From contig JBGULQ010000008.1 in NCBI GenBank assembly GCA_045116295.1, positions 13,147 through 77,146 of the forward strand: 64,000 nucleotides of DNA. Direction: 5' to 3'. Shown here one piece after another: positions 47,187 through 64,000 of the stretch. Position 1 is the first letter of the stretch. Every line of letters begins with the position of its first letter. Made by a program: the position numbers and the translations under genes. This stretch comes from Alphaproteobacteria bacterium (GTDB taxonomy: Bacteria; Pseudomonadota; Alphaproteobacteria; RF32; CAG-239). The notes beneath the pieces were generated by a model, which saw nothing but the letters and a program-made list of their open reading frames with translations, made no database searches and was not told where the DNA came from.

Positions 47187-48005
47187 TTATACAGATAAGA
47201 CTTCTGATTTGGCTTTTATAAAGAAATAGACAGCTTGGTTAATCGGAGTTACGTGAGAGCCATTATATAATCCGCTCGAAACACTGACCGAACTGGTACG
47301 TCCTTTGGTCGGGGTAGTACTCGAGCCATTAAGACGATATGCAACTGCGTGAGTTCCTGATGCTCCACCTTCTTGGCATAAATAGTTATTGGCATCAATA
47401 TTAACGCTATCTGATCCACCGGCTTTGGCACCTGCCAATAAGTGGTAGTGGCTTGGAACAGCAGGAAGACTTTCTGCCTGAGTTGTCTGAATATCGGTCG
47501 CAGAATTGCCTCCAAGCCCTCTCAAAAATTTGCCGCGATAGTCCGGTACATTAAAGGTTGTGACACCATTTCCGGCACCAAATTTGGTGCCAATAAGGTT
47601 ATATAGCTCAGGATAACTTTCTCTTTCTACTTCTTGTCCGTCACACAAAAGCCAATTGCCATGGTTGGCTGATTGTGCAGAGGCCTTGATATCGCCAACC
47701 GGCTGTAAAGCATTAATTATTGACACGACATTGCTTCCAACTCGACTGCTCATGCTATCAACTTGACTTTTAGTAACTACGTCACCGCTCAGTAAAGCAT
47801 TGCCGACATTTTTAATACGGTGTCCGCCCATATTGATATCGCCCTGCATGGCAACACGTCCGTCACGCAAGAATGTTTCGTTAAAGCCGGAAGCAAAATT
47901 ATCATCCTCTTCATCGGCATGATCTGAAACAATGTCGATATCATTGAGACGATCTTGTTCCCAGTTATGAACTCTGGTAAATTTTCCTTGTGAATCAAAA
48001 GGCAT
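47187..48005 (-). CDS. phage tail-collar (MdpB-like) fibre protein, orphan
   Basis: 272 aa with MGGHRIKNVGNALLSGDVVTKSQVD (a fibre shaft motif) and NWLLCDGQEVERESYPELYNLIGTKFG..TFNVPDYRGKFLRG (the Phage_Tail_Collar motif). Confidence 0.8.
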   Translation of the reverse strand: MPFDSQGKFTRVHNWEQDRLNDIDIVSDHADEEDDNFASGFNETFLRDGRVAMQGDINMGGHRIKNVGNALLSGDVVTKSQVDSMSSRVGSNVVSIINALQPVGDIKASAQSANHGNWLLCDGQEVERESYPELYNLIGTKFGAGNGVTTFNVPDYRGKFLRGLGGNSATDIQTTQAESLPAVPSHYHLLAGAKAGGSDSVNIDANNYLCQEGGASGTHAVAYRLNGSSTTPTKGRTSSVSVSSGLYNGSHVTPINQAVYFFIKAKSEVLSV

Positions 48006-48008
48006 TTG

Positions 48009-48083
48009 TTTTCTCCAATAAAAAAACCGCCCATTTTACGAGCGGCAGGTTAATAAAAAAGCGGAAACTTATCGTTTCCGCCA
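48009..48083 (-). repeat. leader repeat copy A: two tandem intrinsic-terminator hairpins followed by RBS and ATG of the tail-collar gene
   Basis: A 57-nt core (ccgcccatt...tttccgcca) is identical to 51461-51517. The minus strand reads GCGGAAAC-GATAA-GTTTCCGC-TTTTTT, then CCGCTC-GTAAAAT-GGGCGG-TTTTTT, then TTGGAGAAAA..ATG. Confidence 0.85.
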
Positions 48084-48114
48084 GGGTTAGTAGCTTTGTC
48101 TTTTTTAAATAACT

Positions 48115-48429
48115 TTATTTGTGTTTCCAGTTATACATAGTATATAAAGGTCTTTGACAAGTACATGAAATTGGTGAATCTATTATATTCCATATACGAG
48201 GATGCCAATTAAACATGAGAGATATTTGCATACAAAAATAAATAAACAGCATACCAATAAATATATATTGTACATCCCTATTATGGTACCAAAACCATAG
48301 TCCGCAAAGAGATAATGTCATAGTATAGAGTACGTGATTACAAAAACTATAGCTCCATCCCCTGTATAAGTAAGCTATTAAGACAGTAATCAGACATCCG
48401 ATGTAAAAGGCTAATGTCAGCTTCTTCAT
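48115..48429 (-). CDS. small 3-TM hypothetical protein
   Basis: 104 aa and Trp/Tyr-rich. Its ATG overlaps the stop of an upstream 37-codon ORF (ATGA). Confidence 0.55.
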   Translation of the reverse strand: MKKLTLAFYIGCLITVLIAYLYRGWSYSFCNHVLYTMTLSLCGLWFWYHNRDVQYIFIGMLFIYFCMQISLMFNWHPRIWNIIDSPISCTCQRPLYTMYNWKHK

Positions 48430-48539
48430 TTTTCAAACCTACTACTCGAAAACAAATAAGCTTCTTGATCAAAAAAACTATAATTAGCAAACAAATAACC
48501 TAAAGACAAACCGATTATAAAATATATTACCTTTCTCAT
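48426..48539 (-). CDS. 37-aa single-TM peptide (not in the ORF track)
   Basis: My own translation is MRKVIYFIIGLSLGYLFANYSFFDQEAYLFSSSRFEK*. It is translationally coupled (ATGA) to the 104-aa ORF. Confidence 0.4.
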   Translation of the reverse strand: MRKVIYFIIGLSLGYLFANYSFFDQEAYLFSSSRFEK

Positions 48540-48620
48540 GCACGACCTCTATTAAAATAAATAATATTTTGAAGTTAATATTTTATTTATTTTGACCAAA
48601 TTTATCTTTGTAACGGACTT

Positions 48621-48809
48621 TTATTTGATCCATTCATTATTAACGGTATTAGGCACATCTGTTGTTTGTAATTCATTTACAGATTTTTCGGGATTTTGGT
48701 TGGGGGTGATGTAATAATATTCACTTTCCCCGGGTTGAGGATTTTGCCTTTGTATCGGGTGTTTTCCGTTAAAAACACCTTGTAAATATTCATAGGTTGT
48801 GTCAGGCAT
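48621..48809 (-). CDS. 62-aa protein consisting almost only of the shared MPDTTYEY N-terminal module
   Basis: Its first 51 aa differ at 3 positions from the first 51 aa of the gene at 51440. The DNA at 48657-48830 has 7 mismatches against 51288-51460 by my count. Confidence 0.55.
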   Translation of the reverse strand: MPDTTYEYLQGVFNGKHPIQRQNPQPGESEYYYITPNQNPEKSVNELQTTDVPNTVNNEWIK

Positions 48810-48855
48810 TGATTTTCTCCAACAAAAAAAATCAATTCGGGGGCTCTCTTATGGA

Positions 48856-49194
48856 TTACATGTTTGCATCAATTCGCGACGTGTTATAATAATCGAATAT
48901 GTGGGGCCAGTATATAAATGTCCCCAACAACGATAGTAAAAGAAAAATCTCGAATGATATTATATAATATTTTTTGAACACGGGAGATTTATATTTGTAA
49001 TGGATAAATTTTGTTATACATGCAAATAACAAAGAAAAATCAAAAATTACAAAGAAGATATTAAACGGGAATTTGCCAAGGTAGATTTCTATTTGGAGAT
49101 CAAGCAGAAATAAGCTGTTAAGAAACAAGAAACATCTCATATATCTCATTATTTCTCTAAAAACCACACCCTTATCTTTTTTGAAAAATTTCAT
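48856..49194 (-). CDS. small 3-TM protein, paralogue of 50315..50671
   Basis: 112 aa. MKFFKKDKGVVFREIMRYMRC... aligns over its full length with MKFFKKDKGIVFRNFIRDARC... Confidence 0.6.
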   Translation of the reverse strand: MKFFKKDKGVVFREIMRYMRCFLFLNSLFLLDLQIEIYLGKFPFNIFFVIFDFSLLFACITKFIHYKYKSPVFKKYYIISFEIFLLLSLLGTFIYWPHIFDYYNTSRIDANM

Positions 49195-49240
49195 TTGTGC
49201 TTCCTATCAGTCGTCTACATTTTTTAACAATAATAATAAA

Positions 49241-50278
49241 TTACTTCTGACCTTTGGTATTAAAATATGTTCCGCATTTGGAATATTTACCAGCATAATT
49301 TAAAATATAATTGAAAGGACAATCCGATGAAACAAAAAAGTCAGCATCTTCATCAATAACTTTGCAAGCGTCTTTCAAGCTAACTCGTTTCTCATCTTCT
49401 TTGGTTAATTTTACCTTATCCTTATCAATGTTTTTTTCTTCCGCAACTTCACTGATAATCATATGTTCTCTCAATGCTTCAATAAAATCTAACGGAGCCT
49501 TAAAACGTTCTTCTTGCGTCCCCCAATCAGCCCTTTTGTAAAAATCGTTAATATCCGTATATTTTTCATCAGAAGCTCTTGCCAATAGAGCCATTTGGTC
49601 ATTTTCCGCTATTCCTATTTCTTCTTTGAATTTTTCTCTCACTTTATTCGGATAATTAACCATTTCATATCCTTGGGCTTTGCAAAACTCCGGATACGCA
49701 TAAGTATGACGATATATCTCACCCACAGCAAGCCCTAAATGAAAAGCAGATCTATTCGTATCAGGCATATATTTATCTTTCACTTCAAACATACCAAAGA
49801 TTCCCAGAAAAACCAAAATTGTAAAAATGATAGGGAATCGTGTTAGAAAGCTTCTTTGAGGTTCATCAACATTTTGTTTTGCAGGTCGTAAAGCAAGAAT
49901 TAAATGGGTAATCGCAGTAATACCTGAAATCAGATATATACTCCATCTGATTTCAGGGAAAAAGGATATATCAACATCAAAAGTTAATGCCATTGTATAA
50001 AGTAAGAGAACATTAGCCAGAATATACCATGTTCCTGAACTACCAAAAGACCTGGAACGTTTTTGTATTAATGCAGTCAAACAATATATCACAAGGAAAA
50101 ATACGATAATGTATGATATAAGCTCAAAAACACAAAACTTAGTTATTATCCCAAGCAACAAAACAGCTGTTATGTAAGGTATACGATAAATAATTCCTTT
50201 GTAAGAAAAAAATAGTTTTAAAATATTCCCGGAAAATAAAATTTGATTTGCTTTTTCAAAAAACTGTTTAAATTGCAT
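49241..50278 (-). CDS. hypothetical protein: N-terminal 4-5 TM domain plus a roughly 170-aa soluble C-terminal domain
   Basis: I prefer the ATG at 50278, after AAGGAGAAAG. The product is 345 aa. I recognise no family. Confidence 0.55.
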   Translation of the reverse strand: MQFKQFFEKANQILFSGNILKLFFSYKGIIYRIPYITAVLLLGIITKFCVFELISYIIVFFLVIYCLTALIQKRSRSFGSSGTWYILANVLLLYTMALTFDVDISFFPEIRWSIYLISGITAITHLILALRPAKQNVDEPQRSFLTRFPIIFTILVFLGIFGMFEVKDKYMPDTNRSAFHLGLAVGEIYRHTYAYPEFCKAQGYEMVNYPNKVREKFKEEIGIAENDQMALLARASDEKYTDINDFYKRADWGTQEERFKAPLDFIEALREHMIISEVAEEKNIDKDKVKLTKEDEKRVSLKDACKVIDEDADFFVSSDCPFNYILNYAGKYSKCGTYFNTKGQK

Positions 50279-50314
50279 GATCTTTCTCCTTGTGGCAATC
50301 CTATAATACATTAT

Positions 50315-50671
50315 TTATTCATCAAAAAGAGGAACGTATCTATTATCTAGTTTGGAATATGTAAGGTATGATAATGTATGTTTGCAGTAAAGTACAAAAC
50401 CTATTATTGAAAGCAACATGAGTACCTGACTAAATAAGACATAGTATCTTTTTAGTTTTCTGATTTTGAATTTGCGATATATAAATTTGGTCAAACAAGA
50501 ACCGATTAACATAAAATCAAAAAAATAAAAGAATGTATCCCACACATTATTTTGATGATGTAATTCTATTTGATAAATAATTAGGAATATATTATTTATC
50601 CATAAGACACATCTAGCATCTCTTATAAAATTTCTAAAAACTATACCTTTATCTTTTTTAAAAAATTTCAT
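50315..50671 (-). CDS. small 3-TM protein, paralogue of 48856..49194
   Basis: 118 aa with the same N-terminal MKFFKKDKG motif and the same topology. Confidence 0.6.
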   Translation of the reverse strand: MKFFKKDKGIVFRNFIRDARCVLWINNIFLIIYQIELHHQNNVWDTFFYFFDFMLIGSCLTKFIYRKFKIRKLKRYYVLFSQVLMLLSIIGFVLYCKHTLSYLTYSKLDNRYVPLFDE

Positions 50672-50707
50672 TGGTGTCCCTGTGTAAATGAGTGATTTAA
50701 CAATTTA

Positions 50708-51440
50708 TTATTTCTTTCTGTAGTTGCTTATAGAATTATGTAGAAGATTCTTGCCTTCTCCCGCTAATTTATTGATTATTGAGCGTATTATAGGACGTTC
50801 AACATTGTTGCCAAAAGCTTTCATTCCTCCATATGTACCTAATCCGCCACTAATTCCGCCTAGCGATGCATCAACAATAACATCTTTGGCATTGTTATTC
50901 TCATTATTACCATATCCGTCTAATGCCGACATTGCAATATTATTTTTATATATTTGTGATGATTTTACCCACCATGGTGCGGTTTTGGAATATTTGAATA
51001 GGGGAACACGGTTAGCTATTGAACCAACTCCCTCCGCAATGCGCGTATGCTATCGGATGTTCTTTGCGGGTTTGTTTTAGGATATTGCGTCTATTGTCAC
51101 GTGCTTCTTTATATCCACGACTAAAAGCTTCCCCGATGCTTTCTTGTTTATTATTGCCCAACATATTGCCTACCGCATACCCTGCCCCTTTTATTCCGCC
51201 TTCAATCTCATCGGCAAAACCGGCAGAAAGACCGTTTAGGGCGGCACTTGTTAATCCTTCGGATGTTTGTAGAATATTATTAGATATATCTGTTGTTTGT
51301 AATTCATTTACAGATTTTTCGGGATTTTGGTTGCGGGTGATGTAATAATATTCACTTTCCCCAGGTTGAGGATTTTGTCTTTGTATCGGGTATTCTCCGT
51401 TAAAAACACCTTGTAAATATTCATAAGTTGTGTCTGGCAT
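50708..51440 (-). pseudogene. glycine-zipper-rich protein with the MPDTTYEY N-terminal module, split by a frameshift near 51012-51049
   Basis: The first frame, 51440..51012, gives 142 aa. The second frame is open from 51049 down to 50708: HTRIAEGVGSIANRVPLFKY...ASLGGISGGLGTYGGMKAFGNN... I traced the two frames by hand and they overlap by about 38 nt. Confidence 0.6.
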
Positions 51441-51443
51441 TGA

Positions 51444-51517
51444 TTTTCTCCAACAAAAAACCGCCCATTTTACGAGCGGCAGGTTAATAAAAAAGCGGAA
51501 ACTTATCGTTTCCGCCA
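51444..51517 (-). repeat. leader repeat copy B: the same tandem terminator hairpins, followed by RBS and ATG of the MPDTTYEY gene
   Basis: See copy A. Outside the identical 57-nt core there is one substitution and one A-run length difference. Confidence 0.85.
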
Positions 51518-51537
51518 TAGTATATGTTCTTTGTAAT

Positions 51538-51572
51538 GTTCCAGGGTTCAAATCCCGTCCGCTTCTATACCA
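51538..51572 (+). other. degenerate tRNA 3'-half-like fragment (T-arm, acceptor and CCA), inverted relative to tRNA-Lys
   Basis: gttCCAGGGTTCAAATCCCgtccgcttctataCCA compares with the tRNA-Lys 3' half tCCAGGGTTCGAATCCCtgcgcgcctaCCA. The T-stem no longer pairs fully. Confidence 0.5.
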
Positions 51573-51573
51573 A

Positions 51574-51606
51574 TAAAAAAACCGCCCCAAAGGACGGTTA
51601 TTTTTA
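51574..51606 (-). terminator. intrinsic terminator directly after tRNA-Lys
   Basis: The minus strand reads AACCGTCC-TTTG-GGGCGGTT followed by TTTTTT. Confidence 0.7.
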
Positions 51607-51607
51607 T

Positions 51608-51684
51608 TGGTAGGCGCGCAGGGATTCGAACCCTGGACCCACTGATTAAGAGTCAGTTGCTCTAGCCAACTGAGCTACGCACCC
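51608..51684 (-). tRNA. tRNA-Lys (anticodon CUU), CCA encoded
   Basis: The reverse complement is GGGTGCG-TA-GCTC-AGTTGGCTA-GAGC-A-ACTGA-CTCTTAA-TCAGT-GGGTC-CAGGG-TTCGAAT-CCCTG-CGCGCCT-A-CCA. I folded the cloverleaf by hand. The acceptor stem contains two G-U pairs. Confidence 0.9.
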
Positions 51685-51791
51685 ATAATCTACCTGTGCA
51701 GGAATATAGACTGCTAACTTTTTTTTTGCAACAACTTTTTTATATTTTTTGCAAAATCGCGCAAGATGTGCCGCGAATCGCACCGGCAATA

Positions 51792-54056
51792 TCATATTAC
51801 CAAGCTGTTTATATTGCCTTTAGCACAGTCCGCAACATCATTGAAAGCACTTATTTGCTCAAAAATTTGCAGTACTTGTTGTGCAGAATAGTTTTTATAA
51901 CAAAAATCGGCTCGCAAGAAATCTGCTCTGACCTTACCAGCCTCAGCAGCAAAACACAGCGGACGATCATCAAATACAAAAGTTTGACAATTTCGCGATA
52001 ACGCCAAATATGTTGTCTTTTCTTGATGAAGTTCAATCCAGCGGCTACCCTTGGGGCATTGAGAACAGGGATTATCACGAATGCACACCGCACTACTGAA
52101 CAACGGCACATCGCTATAAACCGGCAAAACGACCGGCAATGGCGACTCTTGTGCAACAGTACGCATATTATTTAATGTATCTTCAAAAGACAGGCAAACA
52201 CGATTGGCACCTATCTCTTTGGCCATAGAGATTGCCTGAGTATTCAGCGTATAAAGGCTGGCGTCAAAGCTCAAGTCTATCCCCTGCTCCGGCAATAAAT
52301 CAAGCCCCCACCAGTTGCCGATAGTCCATTTTTTATATCCGGCAGACAGAAAAGCAGATATGGAATTTTTCCACGCAGCCGCATCTCGAGCCAATGCCGG
52401 TAAAACTAATCTGACTTTATTTTTGGGGAAATTGTTGATATCCGCAACCTTAGTTTCGCGACTGAGCAAAAATTCTATCTCAGCAAATTTATCAAAGTCT
52501 AAGAGGGCTAAATTTTCGGCGTTGTCAGTACGGACTATCCATTTTGATTGTTGATGGGCGCATGCTTTGATAGCCGGAGGCAGGTTTCCGTGTTTGCCGT
52601 CGAAACTGATTTTTGCATATAACTTGCGGCGTAACTCATTGAACATTGAAGCCGGAACGAATAAGCCGTCAGGATTGATGAGGTGCAATTCTTTTAGGCT
52701 CAATTCGGTATCGCCGGTTTTATTAAAGGCTTTAGTGGCGGCATCATTGGTCTTGGTAATATCTTCGGCTTTAGTAAAATTGCCTTCTATTTCGGCAGAG
52801 AAATTCCCACAAAAAGCTGTAATGTTATCTGATGTTACTTTAACTTCAACTTCTATATCATGACGGCGAATGTATTCTCCGTCTTTGGGGTGAGTGTAGT
52901 TATAGCCGCCTTTGACTTCGCTTGATGATGCAAGGTAGATGTTTTGTCCTTTGGCAATGTCCGGACTTTTTGGGGGCAAGTTTATTGACACTTCGTCTTT
53001 GGCATTAGCCTCAAAAACTCTGCGCCCATTGACAGACATATTTTGGATAGAAAAGCCAAAAGGTTTTTCCTGTCCGGCAATATCGATTTGCAAACCATCA
53101 TGACGGGCAATTTTATGATTGGGCTTAAAAATAAGTTTTCCGTTTACAATCTGTAATACTTTGCCGATCGGAAGCCCGCGGTGGCCTACAAAGTCACGAT
53201 CAACCACGCTCTTATCTTTGCCATGAAGCATAAATTTGCACCAAGGACGTGAAAAAATTTGTTTGATGTTTTCTTCTTTTTGAGCAATGGCTCCCTTGCC
53301 GTCCAAAATATTGCGGTAATAATCAGTAACAGCAGCTACATATAATGCGTTCTTTTTACGTCCTTCAATTTTGAGCGATGTAACCGGCATTTTGCGGACT
53401 TCGTCCTGCAAAGCCATGTCTTTCATTGAAAAATAGTGTTTGTTACCGCTTTTGCCGCTGAAAACCGAACGACACGGATACAAACATTTGCCACGGTTGG
53501 CACTGCGACCGCTTTCCAGAGATGAAAACATACATAATCCGCTGTATGAATAACAGAGTGCACCATGAATAAATGCTTCTGTCTCCAAGTTCGGAATTGA
53601 GGCGATATCCTTGATTTCGGCAAGAGAGAGCTCGCGCGCTAAAACAACACGCTTAAAGCCCAATTTTTGCAAAGCCAATGCGCCTTGTTTGTTATGAACA
53701 GCCATTTGAGTGCTGGCATGCAATTCTAGTTCAGGATATTGGGATTTGATAATTCTCGCAACACCTAAATCCTGCAAAATAATGCCGTCAACGCCGCAAT
53801 TTGAACAAGTATCAAGGCTGTCAATCAGCGACGGCAATTCGTTTTCTTGCACAAGGGTGTTAATAGTTACATAGACACGACGTTTCAAATGGTGAGCATA
53901 GCCGACAAAGTTATTGAGTTCCGCAGCATCAAAATTGGTAGCCGTGGCACGAGCAGAAAAATGCTTAAGCCCAAGATATACGGCATCTGCACCGTAATAG
54001 AGAGCAGCATATCCGGCCTCAATATCACCGGCGGGAGCAAGAAGTTCTGGTTTCAT
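51792..54056 (-). CDS. U32-family peptidase-like protein (long form with C-terminal extension)
   Basis: 754 aa with MKPELLAPAG, ADAVYLG, EAFIHGALCYSYSGLCMFSS and GRSANRGKCLYPCR motifs. Confidence 0.85.
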   Translation of the reverse strand: MKPELLAPAGDIEAGYAALYYGADAVYLGLKHFSARATATNFDAAELNNFVGYAHHLKRRVYVTINTLVQENELPSLIDSLDTCSNCGVDGIILQDLGVARIIKSQYPELELHASTQMAVHNKQGALALQKLGFKRVVLARELSLAEIKDIASIPNLETEAFIHGALCYSYSGLCMFSSLESGRSANRGKCLYPCRSVFSGKSGNKHYFSMKDMALQDEVRKMPVTSLKIEGRKKNALYVAAVTDYYRNILDGKGAIAQKEENIKQIFSRPWCKFMLHGKDKSVVDRDFVGHRGLPIGKVLQIVNGKLIFKPNHKIARHDGLQIDIAGQEKPFGFSIQNMSVNGRRVFEANAKDEVSINLPPKSPDIAKGQNIYLASSSEVKGGYNYTHPKDGEYIRRHDIEVEVKVTSDNITAFCGNFSAEIEGNFTKAEDITKTNDAATKAFNKTGDTELSLKELHLINPDGLFVPASMFNELRRKLYAKISFDGKHGNLPPAIKACAHQQSKWIVRTDNAENLALLDFDKFAEIEFLLSRETKVADINNFPKNKVRLVLPALARDAAAWKNSISAFLSAGYKKWTIGNWWGLDLLPEQGIDLSFDASLYTLNTQAISMAKEIGANRVCLSFEDTLNNMRTVAQESPLPVVLPVYSDVPLFSSAVCIRDNPCSQCPKGSRWIELHQEKTTYLALSRNCQTFVFDDRPLCFAAEAGKVRADFLRADFCYKNYSAQQVLQIFEQISAFNDVADCAKGNINSLVI

Positions 54057-56406: not shown

Positions 56407-56847
56407 TTATTTGATGTCATTATAGAACAGATGATGGGTAGTTTCATAGCAAGGACTATGATGTTTTGCCCATATTGGAAATATGCTGCGGGTGTGATAA
56501 AAGGTTGCGTTATTGGTAAAATCTATAAGTCTTCCGCTAATGGCCTTATCTGCAATTTTTAGGCATAAACAAAATATTTTATCGTTTGAATTTAATTTGA
56601 GAATTTTTGAAAAATTTGGATCGGTCTTGTTCCAACAGCTGAATTGGTATTTTTTCAGGCATGTTTGCTTGAGATCGGGTATTTTAATGCCGTCATCAAG
56701 ACGATAACCGGTAAACCATTTGCGGGCATTGAAGCGGTTCACAATCACACAGGCAACCGCTTCCATACCTTCAATACCATCGCCCCGCGCCTCTCCCCAT
56801 AGTGTAGCGGCCATTATGTGCAAATCATCCCAATCATCAGGAGACAT
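56407..56847 (-). CDS. endolysin, SleB/CwlJ-type cell-wall hydrolase (Hydrolase_2)
   Basis: 146 aa with the AATLWGEARGDGIEGMEAVACVIVNR motif. Confidence 0.8.
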   Translation of the reverse strand: MSPDDWDDLHIMAATLWGEARGDGIEGMEAVACVIVNRFNARKWFTGYRLDDGIKIPDLKQTCLKKYQFSCWNKTDPNFSKILKLNSNDKIFCLCLKIADKAISGRLIDFTNNATFYHTRSIFPIWAKHHSPCYETTHHLFYNDIK

Positions 56848-57121
56848 TTTTGCCTCCTTTATGTTTGCAATTTAACAAAAGATCAAGTTTGGTTTCAAAA
56901 CTATCAAATTTGCTTTCAAGTTTTGCCAACATTATGTTTTGCTGATTTTGCATCATGATTGCCGAGGCTGTTTCTTTATCAGCTTTATCTATGCGTTGCA
57001 GCACACCTTCCATGCGTTCTTCCAGACGGCCTTTCCAAGACCCGAGTTTAACCAAATTCCACAACATGCCGGCTAAGGCAGCTATACCGGATATTCCGCC
57101 GATTGTGTTAATAAAATCCAT
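56837..57121 (-). CDS. holin-like protein (1 TM plus coiled coil)
   Basis: The ATG at 57121 follows GGAGGTGAT. The product is 94 aa with MDFINTIGGISGIAALAGMLWNLV at its start. Confidence 0.5.
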   Translation of the reverse strand: MDFINTIGGISGIAALAGMLWNLVKLGSWKGRLEERMEGVLQRIDKADKETASAIMMQNQQNIMLAKLESKFDSFETKLDLLLNCKHKGGKNVS

Positions 57122-57160
57122 TATCACCTCCATAAAAAAAGGGGCAGAAACTGCCCCCTG

Positions 57161-57850
57161 TTAAAAACCAATTGCTAACCAAAACCACTTACCCAAGTCA
57201 CCACTGCCAAGAGTAAAACCTGTTAGAGAATGAGTAATTACAGAGGCTATGGAAAAGTTTGATGGAGCAAGCGCATCAACTATGTGCGTCAGTGATATTG
57301 AATAGGATGTAGTTTCAAACGGAATCTCATATGTGCAAGTTGTTCCAGAGCTATCATCAAGTTCAATAATTCCCCATTGTATTGTCAAACCACCGGAATA
57401 CTTGACATGATTTGTACCTTGACTAACAATGTTGCCACCGTTAACAAAGGCTGTAGTGGCAACATTGGGAGATAAATCGTTAAGCGAGGGAGTTACGGCT
57501 TGTAATGATCCTTCAAATATCTTATCTCCGCTTATAGTTTGTTCGGTGTCAGTTGTGACATAAGTCTGTTCATATTCGGCAATAGTATTATTTATGTCAT
57601 TGATGCCTGCTTGTGTAGCATTATTAATAGATGTAATTGATTGAGTAGTTTCAATGTCAATAACTTGTTTTTGGTCATTTACATAGTCAGCAAGATCCGG
57701 TTTAGATACCGCAGCAACATAATTGTCAATATCGTCTCGTCCATATTTAACGTATTGGATATCTGCGGAAGTGTTTAAGGCCGCTTCATCCTGAAAGTAA
57801 ACATCAAAATCTTTTGAAGCGTAGTTTTCAAAAATATTAAGTTCGGTCAT
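57161..57850 (-). CDS. phage tail fibre protein
   Basis: The ATG at 57850 follows AAGGAG. The product is 229 aa with the ISGDKIFEGSLQAVTPSLNDLSPNVATTAFV fibre motif. Confidence 0.7.
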   Translation of the reverse strand: MTELNIFENYASKDFDVYFQDEAALNTSADIQYVKYGRDDIDNYVAAVSKPDLADYVNDQKQVIDIETTQSITSINNATQAGINDINNTIAEYEQTYVTTDTEQTISGDKIFEGSLQAVTPSLNDLSPNVATTAFVNGGNIVSQGTNHVKYSGGLTIQWGIIELDDSSGTTCTYEIPFETTSYSISLTHIVDALAPSNFSIASVITHSLTGFTLGSGDLGKWFWLAIGF

Positions 57851-57851
57851 T

Positions 57852-58199
57852 TTACACTCCTTCAGTAATTTGGAATATTGCATTTTGACTTATATCCTGC
57901 GGAAAGACGGTATGCACATTGCCACTGGCAAAAATAATTTTTATGTTGGCTTCATAAGAACCAACTGCAAGGCGTGAATGTTGCGGAGTAATTTTGATTA
58001 AGGCCTGACCATTGCCGGCATCAATGATGTCTCCTGCAATGTGCAGAACAGTGGTTTCGTCTTGGTCTTTGACATCAAGATATATGTTTGCACCGGATAT
58101 ATCCATTACTGATCCGTCTTTATGTTTGAAACGCATGGCAATATCAAAGCTATCGCCTTGTCTAACCAAAATTCCGTTTGGTGTCATTGTTCCTGTCAT
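57852..58199 (-). CDS. small Ig-like (BppU_N-like) virion protein
   Basis: The ATG at 58199 follows AGGAG. The product is 115 aa with GILVRQGDSFDIAMRF...YEANIKI beta-sandwich-like periodicity. Confidence 0.45.
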   Translation of the reverse strand: MTGTMTPNGILVRQGDSFDIAMRFKHKDGSVMDISGANIYLDVKDQDETTVLHIAGDIIDAGNGQALIKITPQHSRLAVGSYEANIKIIFASGNVHTVFPQDISQNAIFQITEGV

Positions 58200-58203
58200 G
58201 GCA

Positions 58204-59109
58204 TTACTCCTTGTTTGGCATTTGGCAGGCAAGGTCATATCTCAGTAGGAGGTATCCGTCTGCATCTTCATAGACTGCTTCAGGAATTATTTTAAGAACA
58301 TCTTGTGCCAGTAACCCAATTTGCGGAGTTGTACTTCCCTTGAAATTGAAACAATAAACCGTTAGCCCATTGTCAAGTTTTCCGACCGGTTTAATGTTTT
58401 CTTTTAATCTTACATCTGAAAACAACATAAGACCGACCTGAGCGGCAGTACCAAGTGCGTCTCTTCCTGCTTGAATACGTGCATCAGTGTTACTCTGTTT
58501 GGCGGCTGCAATTCTACTATCTGCGCCATGTTGAATATTGTAGATATTCATAGCATTATCATAGCCTGAATGTCCAAGCTGCAACTGTGAAATAATCTGG
58601 CTTAAATAATTGTTCTTTGCATTGTTACCAAAATTGGCAACCAATGCATTGTTGTTTAAACTTTGATTGAAAGCGTTTTGACCGCTCAATACTGATTGAT
58701 AAGCTGCTTGATTATAAGCATTGTTTTGACTGTTTTGCAGATTACTCATTGCACGGTTATAGGCATCGCTACCAACTGTAATACCCTGATTTTGAAGGCG
58801 GGTTTCGAGGTCATTGGTTTGTTGAGCAAATTGCGGTCTGAGACGATCTGTATATGCCTGATAAGTCGCATTTTCGGCACGTTTGCGAGCCTCATCAGAA
58901 CCATCGATTTCGTATGTATAGTTATTCATATTGTTCATATTTTGGCTCATGTTATAGGCGTTGTTGAGCAAATTTTGAACAGTATTATCGTAATTTGTTG
59001 TGTTATAATTTTGCAAATAATTTAAGATGTTACTCTCTGATTTATATGGGGAAGTACTGGCATTGCCGGCACCCAATAGTTTTCCAACTGCTTTAAATCC
59101 GCTAGACAT
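58204..59109 (-). CDS. Q/N-rich virion protein with a C-terminal S74 intramolecular-chaperone (autoproteolytic) domain
   Basis: 301 aa. The C-terminus is FSDVRLKENIKPVGKLDNGLTVYCFNFKG...IGLLAQDV..IPEAV. Confidence 0.7.
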   Translation of the reverse strand: MSSGFKAVGKLLGAGNASTSPYKSESNILNYLQNYNTTNYDNTVQNLLNNAYNMSQNMNNMNNYTYEIDGSDEARKRAENATYQAYTDRLRPQFAQQTNDLETRLQNQGITVGSDAYNRAMSNLQNSQNNAYNQAAYQSVLSGQNAFNQSLNNNALVANFGNNAKNNYLSQIISQLQLGHSGYDNAMNIYNIQHGADSRIAAAKQSNTDARIQAGRDALGTAAQVGLMLFSDVRLKENIKPVGKLDNGLTVYCFNFKGSTTPQIGLLAQDVLKIIPEAVYEDADGYLLLRYDLACQMPNKE

Positions 59110-59566
59110 TTTTTTCTCCTGTTGATTGATGATTGATAAATTTACATTCTTTGGCCAACATGCCTAAAACAAGTGCATCTTGGTCATCTGAAAAATATTG
59201 ACGCATTTTGCCCTCAAGAACAAAACCACATCTGGTTGCTAATGAAATAGAGGCATGATTATCCGGACGTATAAGGGCATTGAGCCGACGACATTTTAGA
59301 ACATTGAATGCAATGCCAAAAATTTGTTTTAAGCAAATCTTTGAGCACCAATGTTTATCCGTGGTATATATACTGATCCATGCCGTATCATTTAACTGAT
59401 AATCGCTAAAAACAACTCCTCCGACAATTTTATTTTGGTGTATAATTGCAAAAGAATAGCCTTTTAACATTTCTTCCGGTGACAAACCTAAACCGAATGA
59501 TACATAACGCGCAATATATTCGCTTTGATCATATACCAATTTAGACAATGCCGGCTCCCTGTTCAA
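59102..59566 (-). CDS. GNAT (RimJ/RimL-like) N-acetyltransferase embedded in the tail module
   Basis: 154 aa with ..CRRLNALIRPDNHASISLATRCGFVLEGKMRQYF... It overlaps both neighbouring genes. Confidence 0.7.
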   Translation of the reverse strand: MNREPALSKLVYDQSEYIARYVSFGLGLSPEEMLKGYSFAIIHQNKIVGGVVFSDYQLNDTAWISIYTTDKHWCSKICLKQIFGIAFNVLKCRRLNALIRPDNHASISLATRCGFVLEGKMRQYFSDDQDALVLGMLAKECKFINHQSTGEKNV

Positions 59567-61088
59567 AACGAAAACCGGTATTATACCACTCTATAAGATT
59601 GCCCTTAGTTTTGGTCTTAAAAACTACTGATGCCTTAAAACCGGTTGCACTATTAGCAATCCATTGACTATGTGTGATACCTTTTAAGGTTGACCATTTG
59701 GTACCAATTTGATGTTCAAGACTACTCCATTTACTCTGATTCCATTTAGTGCCGTTATGATTACCCATGTTTTCGGAATATTCACGTTCACTGTCATCAA
59801 AATCCATATTGGCATATATATTCAAACTAAAAACCGCAGAACTTTTGGTTCGCGGATTTAACATTTGTATTTTTTTAAGATTGGGTGTACCAAGTGAACA
59901 ATAAGCTTGATGGACATTGCCGCAAATAGCAATTCCGTTATCAGAATGTCCTTCATCAAATAAAAATACACCGCCGTCAGAACCAAAGTATAGTCTTCCT
60001 TCATATAAACACCAACAAAAAGAATATATATTGGTAAATCTGCACCAAGCTCCGGAGCTCATGTTGATTACATGTTGCTCAAATTGTCCGCCGACAGGAA
60101 CATTGAATAAGACATATCCACCTCGTGGATATATAATACTCTGCCAACCGGATATATTTTTTCCGGTTTTGACACGAGATAAAACCAAACCACGAATTTT
60201 ATCACTGTATGCGGCTTTACCGGTTGAACTTTCTCCGAGAGGTAAAACAGATGAAAGAGGGACATAACCTTCTTCACAGATGACAATTATGTCGCCCTGA
60301 TATTGCATTGTACAGTGTCTTCCGATCGGACGGCTGATAAAATATTTGCCACGTAATGACCAGTTATCAGCGTTGCCGGGATTGGTACCGGAATAAACCA
60401 AAACCTCTCCTTCGGTAGTAATAAAAACAGTAAGGTCGTCAATACCCTGCCCGCCGTCCTGCGTCCAACTTGCTATGGCGGCAATGCTTCCACCACGGGT
60501 GACCAATGTTGATAAATCGACACTGCTCAGTACTCCCTCAACCTCTCCGACGCCTGATGAATACCAATATGTCAAAGAATCTTTTTCAATATAAAAAACA
60601 CGTTGTTTTGAGACTGTTAGATTACATAACTTTTTGATATCAAGTCCCTCTCCGGCAATGTCAGTATTTTTCCATGTCCAAACGTCTTCTTCATTTTTAT
60701 AGTAGGTTTGGGGAAAATCCATACCATTGACCAGAAGTAACCGATTTCGAAACTGAACATAGTTCCAATCATTATAATTTAAGTTATCTACATCTACCGT
60801 ATAGTTGCCAGATGTGATATCAATAATTTTTCCATTGGCGGCAGCAAATAGTCGACTATTTTGTGAAGAAGAAAAAGTAATCAAACTTTCGATTTTGAGT
60901 CCCAGTCCTTCCAATGCATACATTTTGTATCCGCCACGCAAACATACATTAGTTTCAGACGGATAATAATTATCCATGGTAATAGCATCGGTTTCAGACA
61001 TATTATCAAAACTGTCGCGGCAATTAAGTCCGCCTATCGGTGCCGGCAAAATATAGTTCTGCGATCGGCTAATTGCTCTGTTTAACAT
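59541..61088 (-). CDS. tail tubular protein B-like (T7 gp12-like nozzle), short form
   Basis: 515 aa. The N-terminus ..PIGGLNCRDSFDNMSETDAITMDNYYP.. resembles the T7 gp12 start (..KGGISQQPDILRYPDQG..). It occupies the position right after a gp11-like gene. Confidence 0.45.
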   Translation of the reverse strand: MLNRAISRSQNYILPAPIGGLNCRDSFDNMSETDAITMDNYYPSETNVCLRGGYKMYALEGLGLKIESLITFSSSQNSRLFAAANGKIIDITSGNYTVDVDNLNYNDWNYVQFRNRLLLVNGMDFPQTYYKNEEDVWTWKNTDIAGEGLDIKKLCNLTVSKQRVFYIEKDSLTYWYSSGVGEVEGVLSSVDLSTLVTRGGSIAAIASWTQDGGQGIDDLTVFITTEGEVLVYSGTNPGNADNWSLRGKYFISRPIGRHCTMQYQGDIIVICEEGYVPLSSVLPLGESSTGKAAYSDKIRGLVLSRVKTGKNISGWQSIIYPRGGYVLFNVPVGGQFEQHVINMSSGAWCRFTNIYSFCWCLYEGRLYFGSDGGVFLFDEGHSDNGIAICGNVHQAYCSLGTPNLKKIQMLNPRTKSSAVFSLNIYANMDFDDSEREYSENMGNHNGTKWNQSKWSSLEHQIGTKWSTLKGITHSQWIANSATGFKASVVFKTKTKGNLIEWYNTGFRFEQGAGIV

Positions 61089-61776
61089 ATGCTATTCCTC
61101 CGTCGGATATACTGTCGGTCATGCCTCCTAAACTTATATCTTTATTAGCTAATGTTGAGCCAAAACGTTTACGACATTCGGTTTCATACTCACGATATTC
61201 TTCATCATAAGCAATGCCGTTTCTAGCCTGAAGACGCCATCTGATTGCAAGTTTGACAAGATATTCATCAAAAACAGGAATATCCGTATCTTTGGTAATT
61301 TCTGTTTTTTCGGTGAACAGGCCATTTTCGTACGCGACAACAGAAGAACGATATTGAAAAACAATTTTTATTCCCTCAGGAGGCGGAGTTAAAAAACGAA
61401 ACATCGAATTTTGAATTTTAAATTTAATTGTATTATCATCGTTATGAAAATATTTTTCATGCTGCCATTGTTCGGGACGAATTGAACCAATAATTTTTTC
61501 ATTGCCGTCTTTTATATAGACCGTATTGTTTAATAACTGAAAAAAATCAGGGCAAAATGCTTTAATTAGATAATCAGTTTTATTTTTAGAGGTTATCAAT
61601 TCTCCGTCCTTGGTAAGCTCTTGCCAATCACCATAGCGCAACAGACCATTGAGCGCATCTTTAGCAATGCTCTGAAAAACGCGATTGTTTTGACTGCTTG
61701 TAGTAAATAAGCTTTGCGGTTCTTGGACGCAAGCCAAATTAGCTGCGTCTTGGCATATTTCGAGTATGTTTTTCAT
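61069..61776 (-). CDS. tail tubular protein A-like (T7 gp11-like adaptor)
   Basis: 235 aa. It shows similarity in layout to gp11: N-terminal ..ICQDAANLACVQEPQSL.. and C-terminal ..YLVKLAIRWRLQARNG..EEYREYETECRKRF. Confidence 0.4.
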   Translation of the reverse strand: MKNILEICQDAANLACVQEPQSLFTTSSQNNRVFQSIAKDALNGLLRYGDWQELTKDGELITSKNKTDYLIKAFCPDFFQLLNNTVYIKDGNEKIIGSIRPEQWQHEKYFHNDDNTIKFKIQNSMFRFLTPPPEGIKIVFQYRSSVVAYENGLFTEKTEITKDTDIPVFDEYLVKLAIRWRLQARNGIAYDEEYREYETECRKRFGSTLANKDISLGGMTDSISDGGIAYVKQSN

Positions 61777-62323
61777 TTTTGCTCCTTATTTTTTTTGATT
61801 GTTGCAAATTATCAACTTTCGTTTCTAACTCTTTGATACGTTGTTGGTATTCTTGTTCTTTTTTTTGCCACTCAACAAGAGAGAGATTGCCTTTGGCTTG
61901 TTCAACAAACTTAATTGCAAGTTCGCGTTCTTTGCTGACACCAAGCTCTTCTGCATGTGAAGCATCTAGTTTGGTTAAATGCTCAACAGTATAAATTCCA
62001 CGAACCTTAAGACCGGCAATTTCAGCTGCATCTAAAAATGCAAATTGCTCTAACGGAGTGCCATCTTCAACACATTTTTTAGCTTGTTTATATCGAGCAT
62101 ATTCATTGGGAAAACGCCTTATTTTATCTGGTGTTGCCGGCTGATTATAAACTTCGGAGCTGTTATCTTTTATGCGTATTTCACAAAAACAAACCAACTT
62201 AAATTTTGGCAACCCGTCTTTGGTAATTTGAGAAGTTTTTATTGCCTGATCATAAAAACGTGCAATTACCCCCTCCTCAGAGTTGCCGTTATGTATCACT
62301 TTTTCAAAAGTTGAAAAATCCAT
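61739..62323 (-). CDS. phage hypothetical protein (coiled-coil C-terminus)
   Basis: 194 aa. It lies between the capsid terminator and the gp11-like gene. Confidence 0.5.
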   Translation of the reverse strand: MDFSTFEKVIHNGNSEEGVIARFYDQAIKTSQITKDGLPKFKLVCFCEIRIKDNSSEVYNQPATPDKIRRFPNEYARYKQAKKCVEDGTPLEQFAFLDAAEIAGLKVRGIYTVEHLTKLDASHAEELGVSKERELAIKFVEQAKGNLSLVEWQKKEQEYQQRIKELETKVDNLQQSKKIRSKNEKHTRNMPRRS

Positions 62324-62335
62324 TACTGTCTCCTT

Positions 62336-62368
62336 TATAAAAAAGCGGCGTCATTACTGACGCCGCTC
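62336..62368 (-). terminator. intrinsic terminator immediately after the major capsid gene
   Basis: The minus strand reads GCGGCGTCA-GTAA-TGACGCCGC-TTTTTTATAAAGGAGACAGTAATG. Confidence 0.8.
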
Positions 62369-62384
62369 ATTTTTGTTTTATTGA

Positions 62385-63368
62385 TTATCCTTCATTTGAT
62401 GACGTATCAGTGAAGACTACACCTTGCAAAGCGGCATTTGACATAGTCAAGTTACCGGCCCAACCGATGATTTTATAAATTGCATCTTGGTTGACTGACA
62501 TTCTCTCACCACCGATTACTTTCATGTTGCGGTCTTTATGAGTACGCAAATACAAATAATTGGTATTAAGAAAATACATTTTGCCATCGGGGCAGCAACC
62601 ACCTTGACCACCATCACATACAACATCTGCACCCTTAAAGCGCAAGGCTTCAAAACCGGCATCTGCAAGTCTTGTATCAACAAAACGCTGCTGAGCAGTT
62701 AATGACTGTTCAAACAATGAATACCACTCATCACCGGTGACAATCAAATCCGGCTTATCAATGCCGCGTGTCAATGACATATACATTGAATCCATTGCTG
62801 AACGCAGACTATCAGATGTAATCGTGCCGGTAAGTTCTTTGGCTTTGTTACGCCAAAACTCGTTACCTGCGGTTGCACGATTGATGTTGCCTACGGTGCC
62901 ACTGCTTGGAAAATCAGCTACCAACAAACTCAACCCACCAATTGATTTGCCGTTATAACCTGTACCATCACTGTATACAGCTTCGGCCATTTTATTGCTC
63001 ATAGTCTTAACTGCGTTTTCAATGCGCTTTTCAAACAAATCTATCATTTGATATTGACCAGAATTTTTGAGCAATTCTTCACCGGAAATGGCAACAGGAA
63101 CAGCACATAATTTTAATGAGTATTCGGCTGCGCTGAACAGTTGTTTTGGGGTATATGTAATTGTGTCATATCCTGAATACCAAGACAAGTCACCTTCTCC
63201 GTATTCAAGTTCTTCAATAATTTTTGAACCGCCGGCAAGCATGCGGTTGTGTCCTTTTTCTTGCAGACGTTTTAACAATGCATTGTTGTTAGAAACAGCA
63301 TCTGCAAGCTGGCCGCTACGGCTGGTAAGTGTGGTTGTAAAAATATCATTATAATCGTTATTAGCCAT
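62385..63368 (-). CDS. phage major capsid protein
   Basis: 327 aa. I assign it from its position after the scaffold-like gene, its size, the strong terminator behind it, and general likeness to T7 gp10-class capsid proteins. Confidence 0.6.
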   Translation of the reverse strand: MANNDYNDIFTTTLTSRSGQLADAVSNNNALLKRLQEKGHNRMLAGGSKIIEELEYGEGDLSWYSGYDTITYTPKQLFSAAEYSLKLCAVPVAISGEELLKNSGQYQMIDLFEKRIENAVKTMSNKMAEAVYSDGTGYNGKSIGGLSLLVADFPSSGTVGNINRATAGNEFWRNKAKELTGTITSDSLRSAMDSMYMSLTRGIDKPDLIVTGDEWYSLFEQSLTAQQRFVDTRLADAGFEALRFKGADVVCDGGQGGCCPDGKMYFLNTNYLYLRTHKDRNMKVIGGERMSVNQDAIYKIIGWAGNLTMSNAALQGVVFTDTSSNEG

Positions 63369-63390
63369 GTTTTTATCCTTCTATAATTGA

Positions 63391-64000
63391 TTATTGTTCA
63401 TCCAATTGTGCAAATTGGCGTTCAAGAATTTGTCTTGTGGTAAGACCTGTGTAATCATCATCATTGCTACGATGTCCGGTTACAGAAAAAGCAGCCTCTT
63501 TGGCTGCTTTTGCTTCTTCAGCTTTTGCCAATAATTCAGCCTCATGTTTGTTCTTGTCGTCAAACGCAGTACGCAATGCAGATACACTCTCAATCAGCAT
63601 ATTCATGCCGTTTAGCAATGCATCAGTCTTGGCACTGTTTTCGCTACAAATTTGGGCGGTATTGCTATCAGAACTTTGTCCCATATCAATACCATATACG
63701 CGAGCCAAAAATTGCAAAACTGCCGCCGGATTTTGCTCAATCAGATCCTCTGCCAAAATAAGATGTTCAATCCACTCTCTGGCGTTTTTGAACCCTCTTT
63801 TTGAGCCTTTTGAGCTGAAAGCATCATCAATAAAACGCCGAGCGTTGACCTCGGCGTTTAATTCTTCAAGCGATTTTGAAAATTCGCCTTCTCGTTCATA
63901 AAGATATTTGCGAACTTCAAATGGCAATCCTTTAAACAATTCGCGAATTTCTCCGATATAGGCTTCGGGAGCTTCTGCAAACTGTTCATCAGAAACAATA
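63391..64000 (-). CDS. scaffolding-like protein (partial; frame stays open to the window edge)
   Basis: It has an Ala/Glu-rich helical C-terminus (..HEAELLAKAEEAKAAKEAAF..). The M shown at 63939 in the track is a TTG codon, and the frame continues upstream (..IVSDEQFAEAPEAYIGEIRELFKGL..). Confidence 0.5.
   Translation of the reverse strand, partial: IVSDEQFAEAPEAYIGEIRELFKGLPFEVRKYLYEREGEFSKSLEELNAEVNARRFIDDAFSSKGSKRGFKNAREWIEHLILAEDLIEQNPAAVLQFLARVYGIDMGQSSDSNTAQICSENSAKTDALLNGMNMLIESVSALRTAFDDKNKHEAELLAKAEEAKAAKEAAFSVTGHRSNDDDYTGLTTRQILERQFAQLDEQ

Follow-up and report, generated by a model that had tools for sequence, protein, structure and literature searches.

A leader of two tandem terminator-like hairpins shared by a tail-collar gene and interchangeable toxin modules of rumen alphaproteobacteria: a probable phage-derived gate and recombination seam

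In the 64,000-nt stretch of the alphaproteobacterial contig JBGULQ010000008.1 that was analysed here (the window), two copies of one short leader lie about 3.4 kb apart beside a tRNA-Lys gene, the one directly upstream of a tail-collar gene and the other directly upstream of a toxin gene. In both, two apparent intrinsic terminators stand immediately before the start codon. Why should a gene begin right behind two terminators, and why should two unlike genes share this arrangement? The answer that we favour, with a probability of roughly 60%, is that the leader is a portable module junction of phage origin, which serves both as a transcriptional gate and as a recombination seam.

The initial annotation of this locus described the leader as an identical sequence in direct repeat, and this was confirmed: a 61-mer (GCGGAAAC..GGGCGGTTTTTT) occurs exactly twice in the window, at 48021-48081 and 51455-51515 of the minus strand, as compared with an expected count of 0 in shuffled sequences (n = 100), and the identity between the copies, A and B, comprises 63 nt by BLAST. 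The ungapped pair 48006-48083 / 51440-51517 is 91% identical over 78 nt, because a 1-nt difference in the length of a T-run shifts the register. Read on the minus strand, the leader starts with GGCGGAAAC-GATAA-GTTTCCGCT (hairpin H1), T6 and the spacer ATTAACCT, and continues with GCCGCTCGT-AAA-ATGGGCGGT (hairpin H2), T6-7, (A/G)TTGGAGAAAA, 3-4 nt and ATG. The copies, with their Shine–Dalgarno (SD) sequences, are:

48003..48083, minus strand: leader copy A (H1 48082-48060, T6, spacer, H2 48046-48026, T7, SD GGAG 48016-48013, ATG 48005-48003)
51438..51517, minus strand: leader copy B (H1 51516-51494, T6, spacer ATTAACCT, H2 51480-51460, T6, SD GGAG 51451-51448, ATG 51440-51438)
~48810..48833, minus strand: third, partial leader copy (T-run + GGAGAAAATCA + ATG, hairpins absent)

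With model R1, copies A and B score 106.1 and 98.3 bits, respectively, and the partial copy 20.6 bits. In both full copies the H1 stem (9 bp, dG -13.7 kcal/mol) is followed by T6 and the H2 stem (9 bp, dG -11.6 kcal/mol) by T6-7, and the ATG lies about 20 nt past the H2 stem, with GGAG in between. All four hairpins were called by the terminator scan, and they have the layout of an intrinsic terminator, a G+C-rich stem-loop followed by a U-tract, on the minus strand only. Folding gave pair probabilities of about 1 for both stable hairpins, with no competing fold, which rules out an alternative structure of the riboswitch or attenuator kind. The fold and the terminator scan thus agree with the earlier proposal of two consecutive terminators and a ribosome-binding site ahead of each ATG, and H1 and H2 are very likely to be terminators. 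A search of Rfam (E <= 1) over 46000-53000 returned only the tRNA and sub-threshold noise, the leader matching no family. The source is a rumen alphaproteobacterium that has not been cultured; Logan contig L001, from the same sequencing run, stops within copy A. Also in leader A (48003-48060, minus strand), the U-tract after H1 pairs weakly with the UUGGAGAAAA SD region (p 0.6-0.8, all A-U/G-U); this pairing encloses H2 and may mask the SD in read-through transcripts. The third copy precedes a truncated toxin ORF and belongs to a repeat, D1, of 183 nt and 95% identity (48647-48829 / 51278-51460), which takes in the first 54 codons of the downstream open reading frames (ORFs). The interval between the leaders is AT-rich, with 26-33% G+C as against 38-44% in the flanks.

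When 14 distinct leader variants, all from close relatives, were aligned, standard pairs occupied 96.6% of the helix cells, as compared with 40-47% after the partners had been slid. One compensatory exchange in H1 (G-C<->U-A) splits the sequences 7 vs 7; in H2, U-G changes to C-G or U-A, and one-sided changes keep or improve the pairing. The H1 loop varies in both sequence and length (GATAA, ACTGT, ATTGT, AGTGGC, AGCGAT), as does the sequence of the H2 loop (GTAAAAT, GTGAAAT, GTTAAAT, GCAATC, TGTAAC), and the inter-hairpin spacer TTTTTT(A/G)TTAACC is almost invariant. This pattern suggests that the two stems are conserved as structures, the support being real but modest.

Further leaders were sought in 185,579 species genomes with a pattern for the GCGG-type H1, which misses H1 variants such as GCTG, and in JGI metagenomes with the invariant inter-hairpin spacer, which compensates for such misses. 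The genome scan gave 20 matches, 18 of them chance hairpins in unrelated phyla; the two real ones were full leaders before collar orthologues in rumen alphaproteobacterial metagenome-assembled genomes (MAGs). Four of the five metagenome matches were genuine, all before collar or toxin genes, and the spacer pattern had 0 matches in the viral collection. Look-ups of toxin homologues added syntenic contigs from bovine and other gut metagenomes. Every leader recovered is bounded on one side by the stop codon of an immunity-like gene or by the tRNA-Lys region, and on the other by the ATG of a collar or toxin gene, and the leader-bearing loci are confined to a narrow lineage of rumen alphaproteobacteria, at the same tRNA-Lys locus type.

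What the leaders separate can be seen from the genes of the island:

47187..48005, minus strand: tail-collar (short tail-fibre-like) gene, 272 aa (Pfam Collar, 8.6e-20; many PHROG tail-fibre families)
48115..48429, minus strand: 104-aa small membrane protein, putative immunity protein of the Tlde1-type toxin, orphan here (synteny)
48426..48539 (approximate), minus strand: 37-aa small ORF, which accompanies the Tlde1 module in all relatives (tblastn map, 97% identity)
48621..48809, minus strand: truncated Tlde1-type toxin, N-terminal 62 codons only (tblastn against P0006, alignment A2)
48856..49194, minus strand: 112-aa paralogue (43% identical) of the 118-aa protein, putative immunity protein (module map)
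49241..50311, minus strand: 356-aa membrane/soluble protein (membrane region at the N-terminus), encoded between the genes of the 118-aa and 112-aa proteins
50315..50671, minus strand: 118-aa small membrane protein, putative immunity protein (module map; after the 190-aa or Gly-zipper toxin in relatives)
50708..51440, minus strand: toxin gene B, 52-aa N-terminal domain and Gly-zipper C-terminus (homologues; tblastn, two frames)

The toxins share an almost invariant N-terminus of 52 aa (MPDTTYEYLQGVFNGEHPIQRQNPQPGESEYYYITPNQNP.KSVNELQTTD), which is followed by one of three unrelated C-termini (alignment A2): a Gly-zipper (P0001, 243 aa), a 190-aa type (P0004), or a Tlde1/YkuD L,D-transpeptidase-like domain (P0006, with Tlde1_dom PF10908 at 7e-9 and YkuD at threshold). 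Each type has its own followers. In the module map, the Tlde1 toxin is always followed by the 37-aa ORF and a 100/104-aa protein (the 104-aa gene in L006, L022, L024-26, and L032), the 190-aa toxin by a 42-aa ORF and a 118-aa protein, and the Gly-zipper toxin by the 112-aa protein, whose gene lies directly 3' of it in L032, or the 118-aa protein (window, L004). From their position beside the toxins, these small membrane proteins are putative immunity proteins; no Pfam family was found for the 118-aa protein. The 356-aa gene lacks a leader of its own and was found only in the array of the window, being missing from those of other strains. Pfam, NCBIfam, and PHROG scans gave nothing significant for the toxin N-domain, the small membrane ORFs, or the 356-aa protein.

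A HMMER search of 1.84 billion representatives found the N-domain in 36 proteins. In the 17 of these 36 that were examined, it lies at, or within about 12 residues of, the N-terminus, and precedes C-termini of the lysozyme, GH108, Tlde1, Gly-zipper, or 'xDNYxHxxxxCxxAQxG' type; Phage_lysozyme and GH108 domains are found in P0018 and P0016. The C-termini of P0004, P0011, P0013, P0028, and P0029 share the motif 'G.DNY.H....C..AQ.G', which resembles serum amyloid A, and have no Pfam match. The N-domain, which is probably disordered, matched no Pfam or NCBIfam model, and a viral scan with the P0009-type N-domain found nothing. Markers of type V, VI, or VII secretion systems are not present in the locus, and the toxins carry no trafficking domain recognised by Pfam or NCBIfam.

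We assign these proteins to the polymorphic toxins: a conserved N-terminus is joined to unrelated C-termini, at least one of them from a known toxin family, with small membrane ORFs adjoining. As in the Rhs, CDI, and Maf arrays of the polymorphic toxin systems described by Zhang et al. (2012, PMC3482391), who also noted MuF-domain phage toxins, there are a conserved N-terminus, variable C-terminal toxins, adjacent immunity-like genes, truncated or orphan copies, and diversification by recombination at conserved sequence. In contrast to those arrays, the toxins are small (190-250 aa), their 52-aa N-domain has no Pfam family, every member of the array is a gene complete with SD and ATG, and the shared homology includes an intergenic double terminator that is also used by a non-toxin tail-fibre gene. 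By its gene content, the interval between the leaders is a decayed array of polymorphic toxins and putative immunity genes. The repeats do bracket an interval of 3.4 kb, as the initial annotation stated, but this is not a single cassette: what is left there stems from two to three toxin/immunity modules or more. Similarly, the glycine-rich gene said to follow copy B is placed behind the leader as claimed but is not intact, having a frameshift near 51040 where its full-length relative P0001 reads on to 243 aa. Thus, both toxin genes of the window are broken and the 118-, 112-, and 104-aa immunity-like genes are intact, which amounts to an 'immunity-only' state if the frameshift is not an artefact of assembly.

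The suggestion that the repeats could delete or capture the interval between them is borne out by natural variants. The array runs tRNA-Lys, leader, Tlde1 module, leader, 190-aa module, leader, collar in L022; 190-aa module, leader, Tlde1 module, leader, collar in L006; Tlde1 module, leader, Gly-zipper module, leader, collar in L032; and tRNA-Lys, leader, 190-aa module, leader, collar in L023. The order of modules differs between strains, the junction is always the leader, and the collar gene is the constant last gene in every strain. The same gene ends are joined to different gene starts: through the leader, the 3' tail of the 100/104-aa gene leads to the collar gene in the window, L006, and L029, and to the 190-aa toxin in L022 and L024-26, and the tail of the 118-aa gene leads to the collar gene in L004, L022, L027, and L030, and to the Tlde1 toxin in L006. 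From -140 to +23 relative to the ATG, L023 agrees with L024/L022 around their first leader, and from about -20 to +260 around their second. By this comparison it is the exact recombinant of leader 1 and leader 2, from which the Tlde1 module was deleted or, read inversely, L024 is the insertion; the crossover maps to the T-run, the SD, and the first 23 nt of the ORF. L023 and the longer-array L025 come from assemblies of one rumen biosample, SAMEA104395180. Moreover, the copies within the window, and those within L032, carry genome-specific loop variants, which fits gene conversion or recent duplication. We therefore hold it highly probable, as judged from these strain comparisons, that the leader acts as a recombination seam, most simply by homologous recombination. 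The homology comprises about 80 nt of near-identical leader, extended between toxin genes by about 160 nt of the shared N-terminal coding region, and recombination between leader copies would delete, insert, and reorder modules.

At its upstream end, the island borders on the tRNA-Lys gene:

51608..51684, minus strand: tRNA-Lys(CTT) gene, upstream anchor of the island (ARAGORN; Rfam tRNA 69.8 bits)
51572..51599, minus strand: intrinsic terminator of tRNA-Lys (stem 51599-51580; 8-bp stem, T7, dG -11.9 kcal/mol)
51541..51565, plus strand: inverted relic of a tRNA 3' end (T-arm/acceptor-like), containing CCAGGGTT (inverted repeat I7)

At copy B there are accordingly three terminators in a row, that of tRNA-Lys and then H1 and H2, as had been proposed. 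The tRNA-Lys gene has the same position, and the relic is kept, in L022, L023, and L027. The relic includes 17 nt with 94% complementarity to the tRNA-Lys T-arm, occurs once in the window, and converges on the tRNA-Lys terminator, the hairpin of which thus has ACCAAT...ATTGGT on its two sides. Possibly it is the scar of an old integration. At 19989-20317 (plus strand), the window has a tmRNA gene of the permuted (two-piece) kind with the tag ANDNELAPVALAA, as fits an alphaproteobacterial source; the relic has no similarity to its 3' end and is not a duplicate of it. In L022 (8480-8700) and L023 (715-935), an extra segment of about 215 nt lies between the relic and the first leader, which is absent from the window and L027. 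The octamer CCAGGGTT, which the initial annotation pointed out, is indeed present at both leader copies. It does not mark a meaningful boundary: relatives read CCGGGGTT at copy A, so that the exact match is most likely a coincidence. Additionally, H2 of leader A and the terminator of tRNA-Lys agree in their 3' arm, T-run, and ATTGG, so that the 18 nt at 48015-48032 recur unchanged at 51570-51587. An att core was ruled out here, as the terminator stem differs in L022 and L023, where only TTTTTTATTGG is common, and the identity is probably due to convergence.

All genes from 64000 to 46445 lie on the minus strand, and the island is thus co-directional with a phage-like cluster upstream of it:

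56407..64000, continuing outside the window (L033/L036 1-17500), minus strand: co-directional podovirus-like structural/lysis cluster (profile scans)
57139..57159, minus strand: terminator hairpin and T-run before the SD/start of the holin-like gene (dG -14.4 kcal/mol)
62344..62367, minus strand: terminator hairpin and T-run directly ahead of the SD/ATG of the gene that follows the major head gene (dG -18.8 kcal/mol; R1 25.4 bits, E 0.0023)

Within the window, the cluster encodes a scaffold, the major head protein, a tail protein, a 515-aa tail-associated protein, a GNAT protein, two fibres, a holin, and an endolysin; outside the window, it begins with a divergent CI/LexA-like repressor, which is followed by ORFs of 162 aa (L036 3844-4332), 104 aa (L036 4436-4750), and 64 aa, terS (P22 gp3 type), terL, a GroES-like Cpn10, and the portal. 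The whole cluster measures about 14 kb and has exbBD on one side and an msbA-like ABC gene on the other; its head protein was found, identical, on 13 contigs, and neither integrase nor replication genes are visible between the repressor and the lysis genes. A defective prophage is one possibility, and an element like a gene transfer agent (GTA) or killer particle another. The design of the leader recurs in it: a tandem terminator pair stands directly before terS (L036 5150-5228, just outside the window), giving the cluster three sense-strand junctions at which hairpin, T-run, SD, and ATG follow one another within about 20 nt. Outside the cluster and the island, no start codon in the window lies 20 nt or less behind a terminator, and no good terminator was found between the holin junction (57139) and the terminator of tRNA-Lys. 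The metK start, 29 nt behind a bidirectional terminator-like hairpin at 42839-42864, is the one housekeeping example in the window of a start codon close to a terminator. Upstream of the terS pair, L036 has two sigma-70-like promoters (TTGACT/TTGACA-17-TATAxx), the first of which (TTGACT-17-TATATA) is followed about 30 nt on by a terminator with T8, in a layout like that of pR'-tR'.

Collar or toxin genes are also carried by related phage and viral contigs. The 17-kb scaffold L037 (MT835830.1, 'Bacteriophage sp.', human faeces) shares synteny with the cluster (major capsid protein 75% and terL 77% identical), and its collar gene, whose product is 40% identical over the full length, lies in the late operon between the S74 fibre gene (fibS74) and p115. 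The leader of this gene consists of one hairpin and then TTTTATTGCAGGAGAAAACACATGCCTTTTGATTCACAAGG, with the stretch from SD to ATG and the first codons near-identical to leader A. A more distant collar homologue in L046 (IMG/VR) is preceded by a hairpin, T7, and GTTGGAGAATTAAGATGCC; in L037, L045, and L046 alike, the collar homologue is inside the late operon. In L037 and L046, the collar gene thus stands in a late operon and has before it a hairpin, a T-run, and an SD arranged as in the leader. The leader layout seems to stem from phage: the H2/T-run/SD unit belonged ancestrally to the collar gene of this phage group, within its late operon, and in the rumen lineage is doubled by H1. As for the toxins, L038 has one of the N-domain family between the 104-aa gene and terS, directly behind TTGACT-17-TATATG, two terminators, and an SD; the distant MAG L041 has two tandem terminators upstream of a toxin; and in L042-44 (IMG/VR, same phage group), N-domain toxins with putative immunity genes lie inside the structural module, between portal and tail genes. 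In L042 (3549-4915), a decayed lysozyme-type toxin is followed by three tandem paralogous 154-aa genes with signal-peptide/lipoprotein-like N-termini, which look like an expanded immunity set.

The initial annotation had likened the arrangement to phage late-gene control, and the conserved hairpins, the collar homologues in late operons, the junctions of the cluster, and the order of promoter, terminators, and toxin in L038 are all consistent with this view. As in the lambda-Q layout, L036 and L038 have a late promoter with one or more terminators close behind it, and the window has further terminators in the operon; a terminator-resistant polymerase is the simplest account of such a terminator-punctuated late operon. 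In the mechanism that we propose, the leaders would block transcripts arriving from tRNA-Lys and from the upstream immunity-like gene, and the toxin and fibre genes would be expressed only by an RNA polymerase that resists the terminators or reads through them. Read-through would most likely occur on induction of the adjoining phage-like element, being possible from its late operon since the two are co-directional; a trans-acting factor on a local promoter would be an equally possible source. Release of the toxins would follow phage-type lysis. That expression of the toxin and collar genes depends on antitermination is plausible, and we consider the chances for and against it to be even.

Other explanations have to be weighed against a gate and seam of phage origin. 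That the leader is a generic dispersed repeat, of the kind of repetitive extragenic palindromes (REP) or miniature inverted-repeat transposable elements (MITE), which happens to occur twice here, would suit its being short, structured, and intergenic, but only two full copies exist in the 64-kb window, Rfam has no matching family, and every genuine copy from the genome, metagenome, and viral collections lies directly before the ATG of a collar or N-domain toxin gene. The search for more copies, which the initial annotation had called for, led to one locus type only, so that its refuting case of a repeat dispersed over many unrelated loci is not borne out, and we regard this explanation as all but excluded. 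More can be said for leaders as site-specific recombination sites, attC- or att-like, with hairpins that are substrates of a recombinase and not terminators: an array of short cassettes separated by imperfect palindromes adjoins a tRNA gene, with a relic tRNA 3' fragment at the boundary. As in integron attC arrays, the cassettes are short, the repeats between them structured, and the cassette order strain-variable. In contrast to those arrays, however, IntI is absent, and no integrase or recombinase was seen in the island, its flanks, or the phage-like cluster as far as scanned; the T-runs of both hairpins are on the coding strand only; the crossover of L023 is outside the hairpins; the third, partial copy retains only T-run and SD; and the 18-nt identity of H2 with the tRNA-Lys terminator is not conserved in L022 and L023. 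We regard such sites as very improbable.

Two further explanations leave the hairpins as terminators and differ over what happens behind them. The leader could be an insulator only, its tandem terminators ending transcription from tRNA-Lys and from constitutively expressed immunity genes, with the genes behind it expressed only by basal leak, or kept as a silent archive of toxin modules that would first have to recombine into an expression site, for instance that behind the promoter in L038, before they could act. The strength of the tandem terminators and the lack of an alternative fold, the decay of the toxin genes beside intact immunity-like genes in the window, and the different, promoter-proximal site of the toxin module in L038 would all agree with this, as would the best sigma-70-like match of the island (TTGGCA-16-TATAAT, 11/12), which lies upstream of the 118-aa gene, inside the 3' end of the toxin gene. 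However, promoter-like matches in such AT-rich DNA are no commoner than in shuffles; this same leader also stands before the collar gene, which is intact and hardly changes from strain to strain (100% identity over 271 of 272 aligned residues in L027 and L030), and this implies that it is expressed; and the collar homologues of phage contigs share the hairpin-SD leader in a late operon that must be read through. We consider insulation alone unlikely. Less likely again is a promoter hidden in the leader, which would start transcription inside or after H2, the hairpins acting only on incoming transcripts. It would have to be of a non-sigma-70 type, for example one dependent on the 162-aa early protein encoded beside the repressor (L036 3844-4332), if this is GafA-like, or on another phage activator. 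GafA-type activators control dispersed GTA loci, including tail-fibre genes. The near-invariance of the spacer, while the loops vary, would suit such a promoter, as would a weak but near-full-length match of the 162-aa protein to DUF6456 (E 0.014), the domain of the GTA activator GafA (PMC9638019). Yet this match is below threshold, and Pfam and PHROG scans gave no significant match for any of the 162-, 104-, and 64-aa early ORFs. Initiation in the spacer would not keep H2 and its T-run out of the transcript, and the roughly 12 nt from T-run to SD leave no room for a promoter after H2. A sigma-70 -10 element (TAAAAT) in the H2 loop was ruled out: it is not conserved, relatives having TGAAAT, TTAAAT, GCAATC, or TGTAAC, and no -35 element fits. 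Moreover, the element has late promoters of its own that are sigma-70-like (TTGACT/TTGACA-17-TATAxx), and these are placed ahead of the terminators rather than inside them.

Several points weigh against the leader as a phage-derived gate and seam. Covariation is modest and comes from close relatives: only one pair is truly compensatory, and two of the measures did not rise above their shuffle controls. Some viral relatives (L042) have no hairpin before the toxin gene. Termination and read-through are predictions, the factor and the timing of expression are inferred from the model, and Pfam and PHROG scans recognised no antitermination component of the Q, N, RfaH/LoaP, or put kind. Any transcript read through from the late operon would meet about 5 kb of genes that look like housekeeping genes (ABC exporter, U32 peptidase, tRNA-Lys) on its way, and, with both toxin genes of the window defective, only the collar gene still needs expression there.

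Known systems share parts of the proposed gate. The Shiga-toxin (stx) genes of lambdoid prophages are controlled by Q antitermination in the order pR'-tR'-stxAB-lysis. The layout in L038 is the closest parallel, since a toxin lies directly behind the late promoter and intrinsic terminator(s) of a phage element, and, as proposed here, a terminator-resistant polymerase would provide for expression and phage lysis for release. In contrast to stx, no Q-family protein was recognised by Pfam or PHROG, the toxin array of the window lies about 5 kb past the lysis genes, behind housekeeping genes and a tRNA, and the toxins are antibacterial and paired with putative immunity genes, each module with its own terminator pair. 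Colicin operons have an SOS promoter, the colicin gene, an immunity gene with its own promoter, a terminator, and a lysis gene. They likewise combine a toxin and an adjacent protective gene with an internal terminator that gates a downstream gene and with lysis-dependent release, and a LexA/CI-type repressor is found in the neighbourhood here; however, the gene order is different, with terminators upstream of the toxin, and the system is chromosomal, phage-linked, and arrayed in several modules, not plasmid-borne. MuF-domain polymorphic toxins of temperate phages, treated in later work, also lie in structural modules of phages or prophage remnants and join a phage-associated N-terminus to a variable toxin C-terminus, but the MuF domain is absent here and the N-domain is short. 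Finally, the structural genes are podovirus-like, with a P22 gp3-type terS and no tape measure, which sets them apart from the HK97/siphovirus-like head-tail cluster of the Rhodobacter capsulatus GTA (RcGTA), a system that has a GafA-family activator and lacks replication and integration genes.

Our literature searches did not find the arrangement described. Its elements are known singly: tandem terminators, late-operon toxins, phage-borne polymorphic toxins, and cassette shuffling. What we did not find described is their combination, a leader of terminator pair and SD that is common to a tail-fibre gene and interchangeable toxin modules, together with an N-domain outside Pfam and NCBIfam and a compact podovirus-like element without integration or replication genes. 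In this leader, three topics are joined that are mostly treated separately, namely terminators as gates before genes, the logic of phage late genes, and cassette shuffling in polymorphic toxins. Should transcription data bear the model out, the leader would be a compact natural 'plug' that provides both phage-type read-through control of any gene behind it and homology for the exchange of such genes. The natural deletion/insertion pair L023/L024 documents the turnover of cassettes, and the N-domain, common to at least 36 protein clusters, is tied to small podovirus-like elements of gut and rumen bacteria.

A further reading, which we hold to be doubtful, is that the 14-kb cluster is a domesticated 'killer particle' and the tRNA-Lys island its detachable armoury. 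If so, the 52-aa N-domain would be the signal by which interchangeable toxins against the cell wall are loaded onto the particle or attached to it, the target range would depend on the collar fibre, and the leader would tie fibre and payload to the antitermination-driven late programme of the particle, with the result that they are made in the lysing subpopulation only, kin being protected by constitutively expressed immunity genes. Such a system would be a payload-swapping, phage-derived toxin delivery device of the non-contractile (podovirus) type, and uncultured rumen alphaproteobacteria may thus harbour a domesticated phage-like particle.

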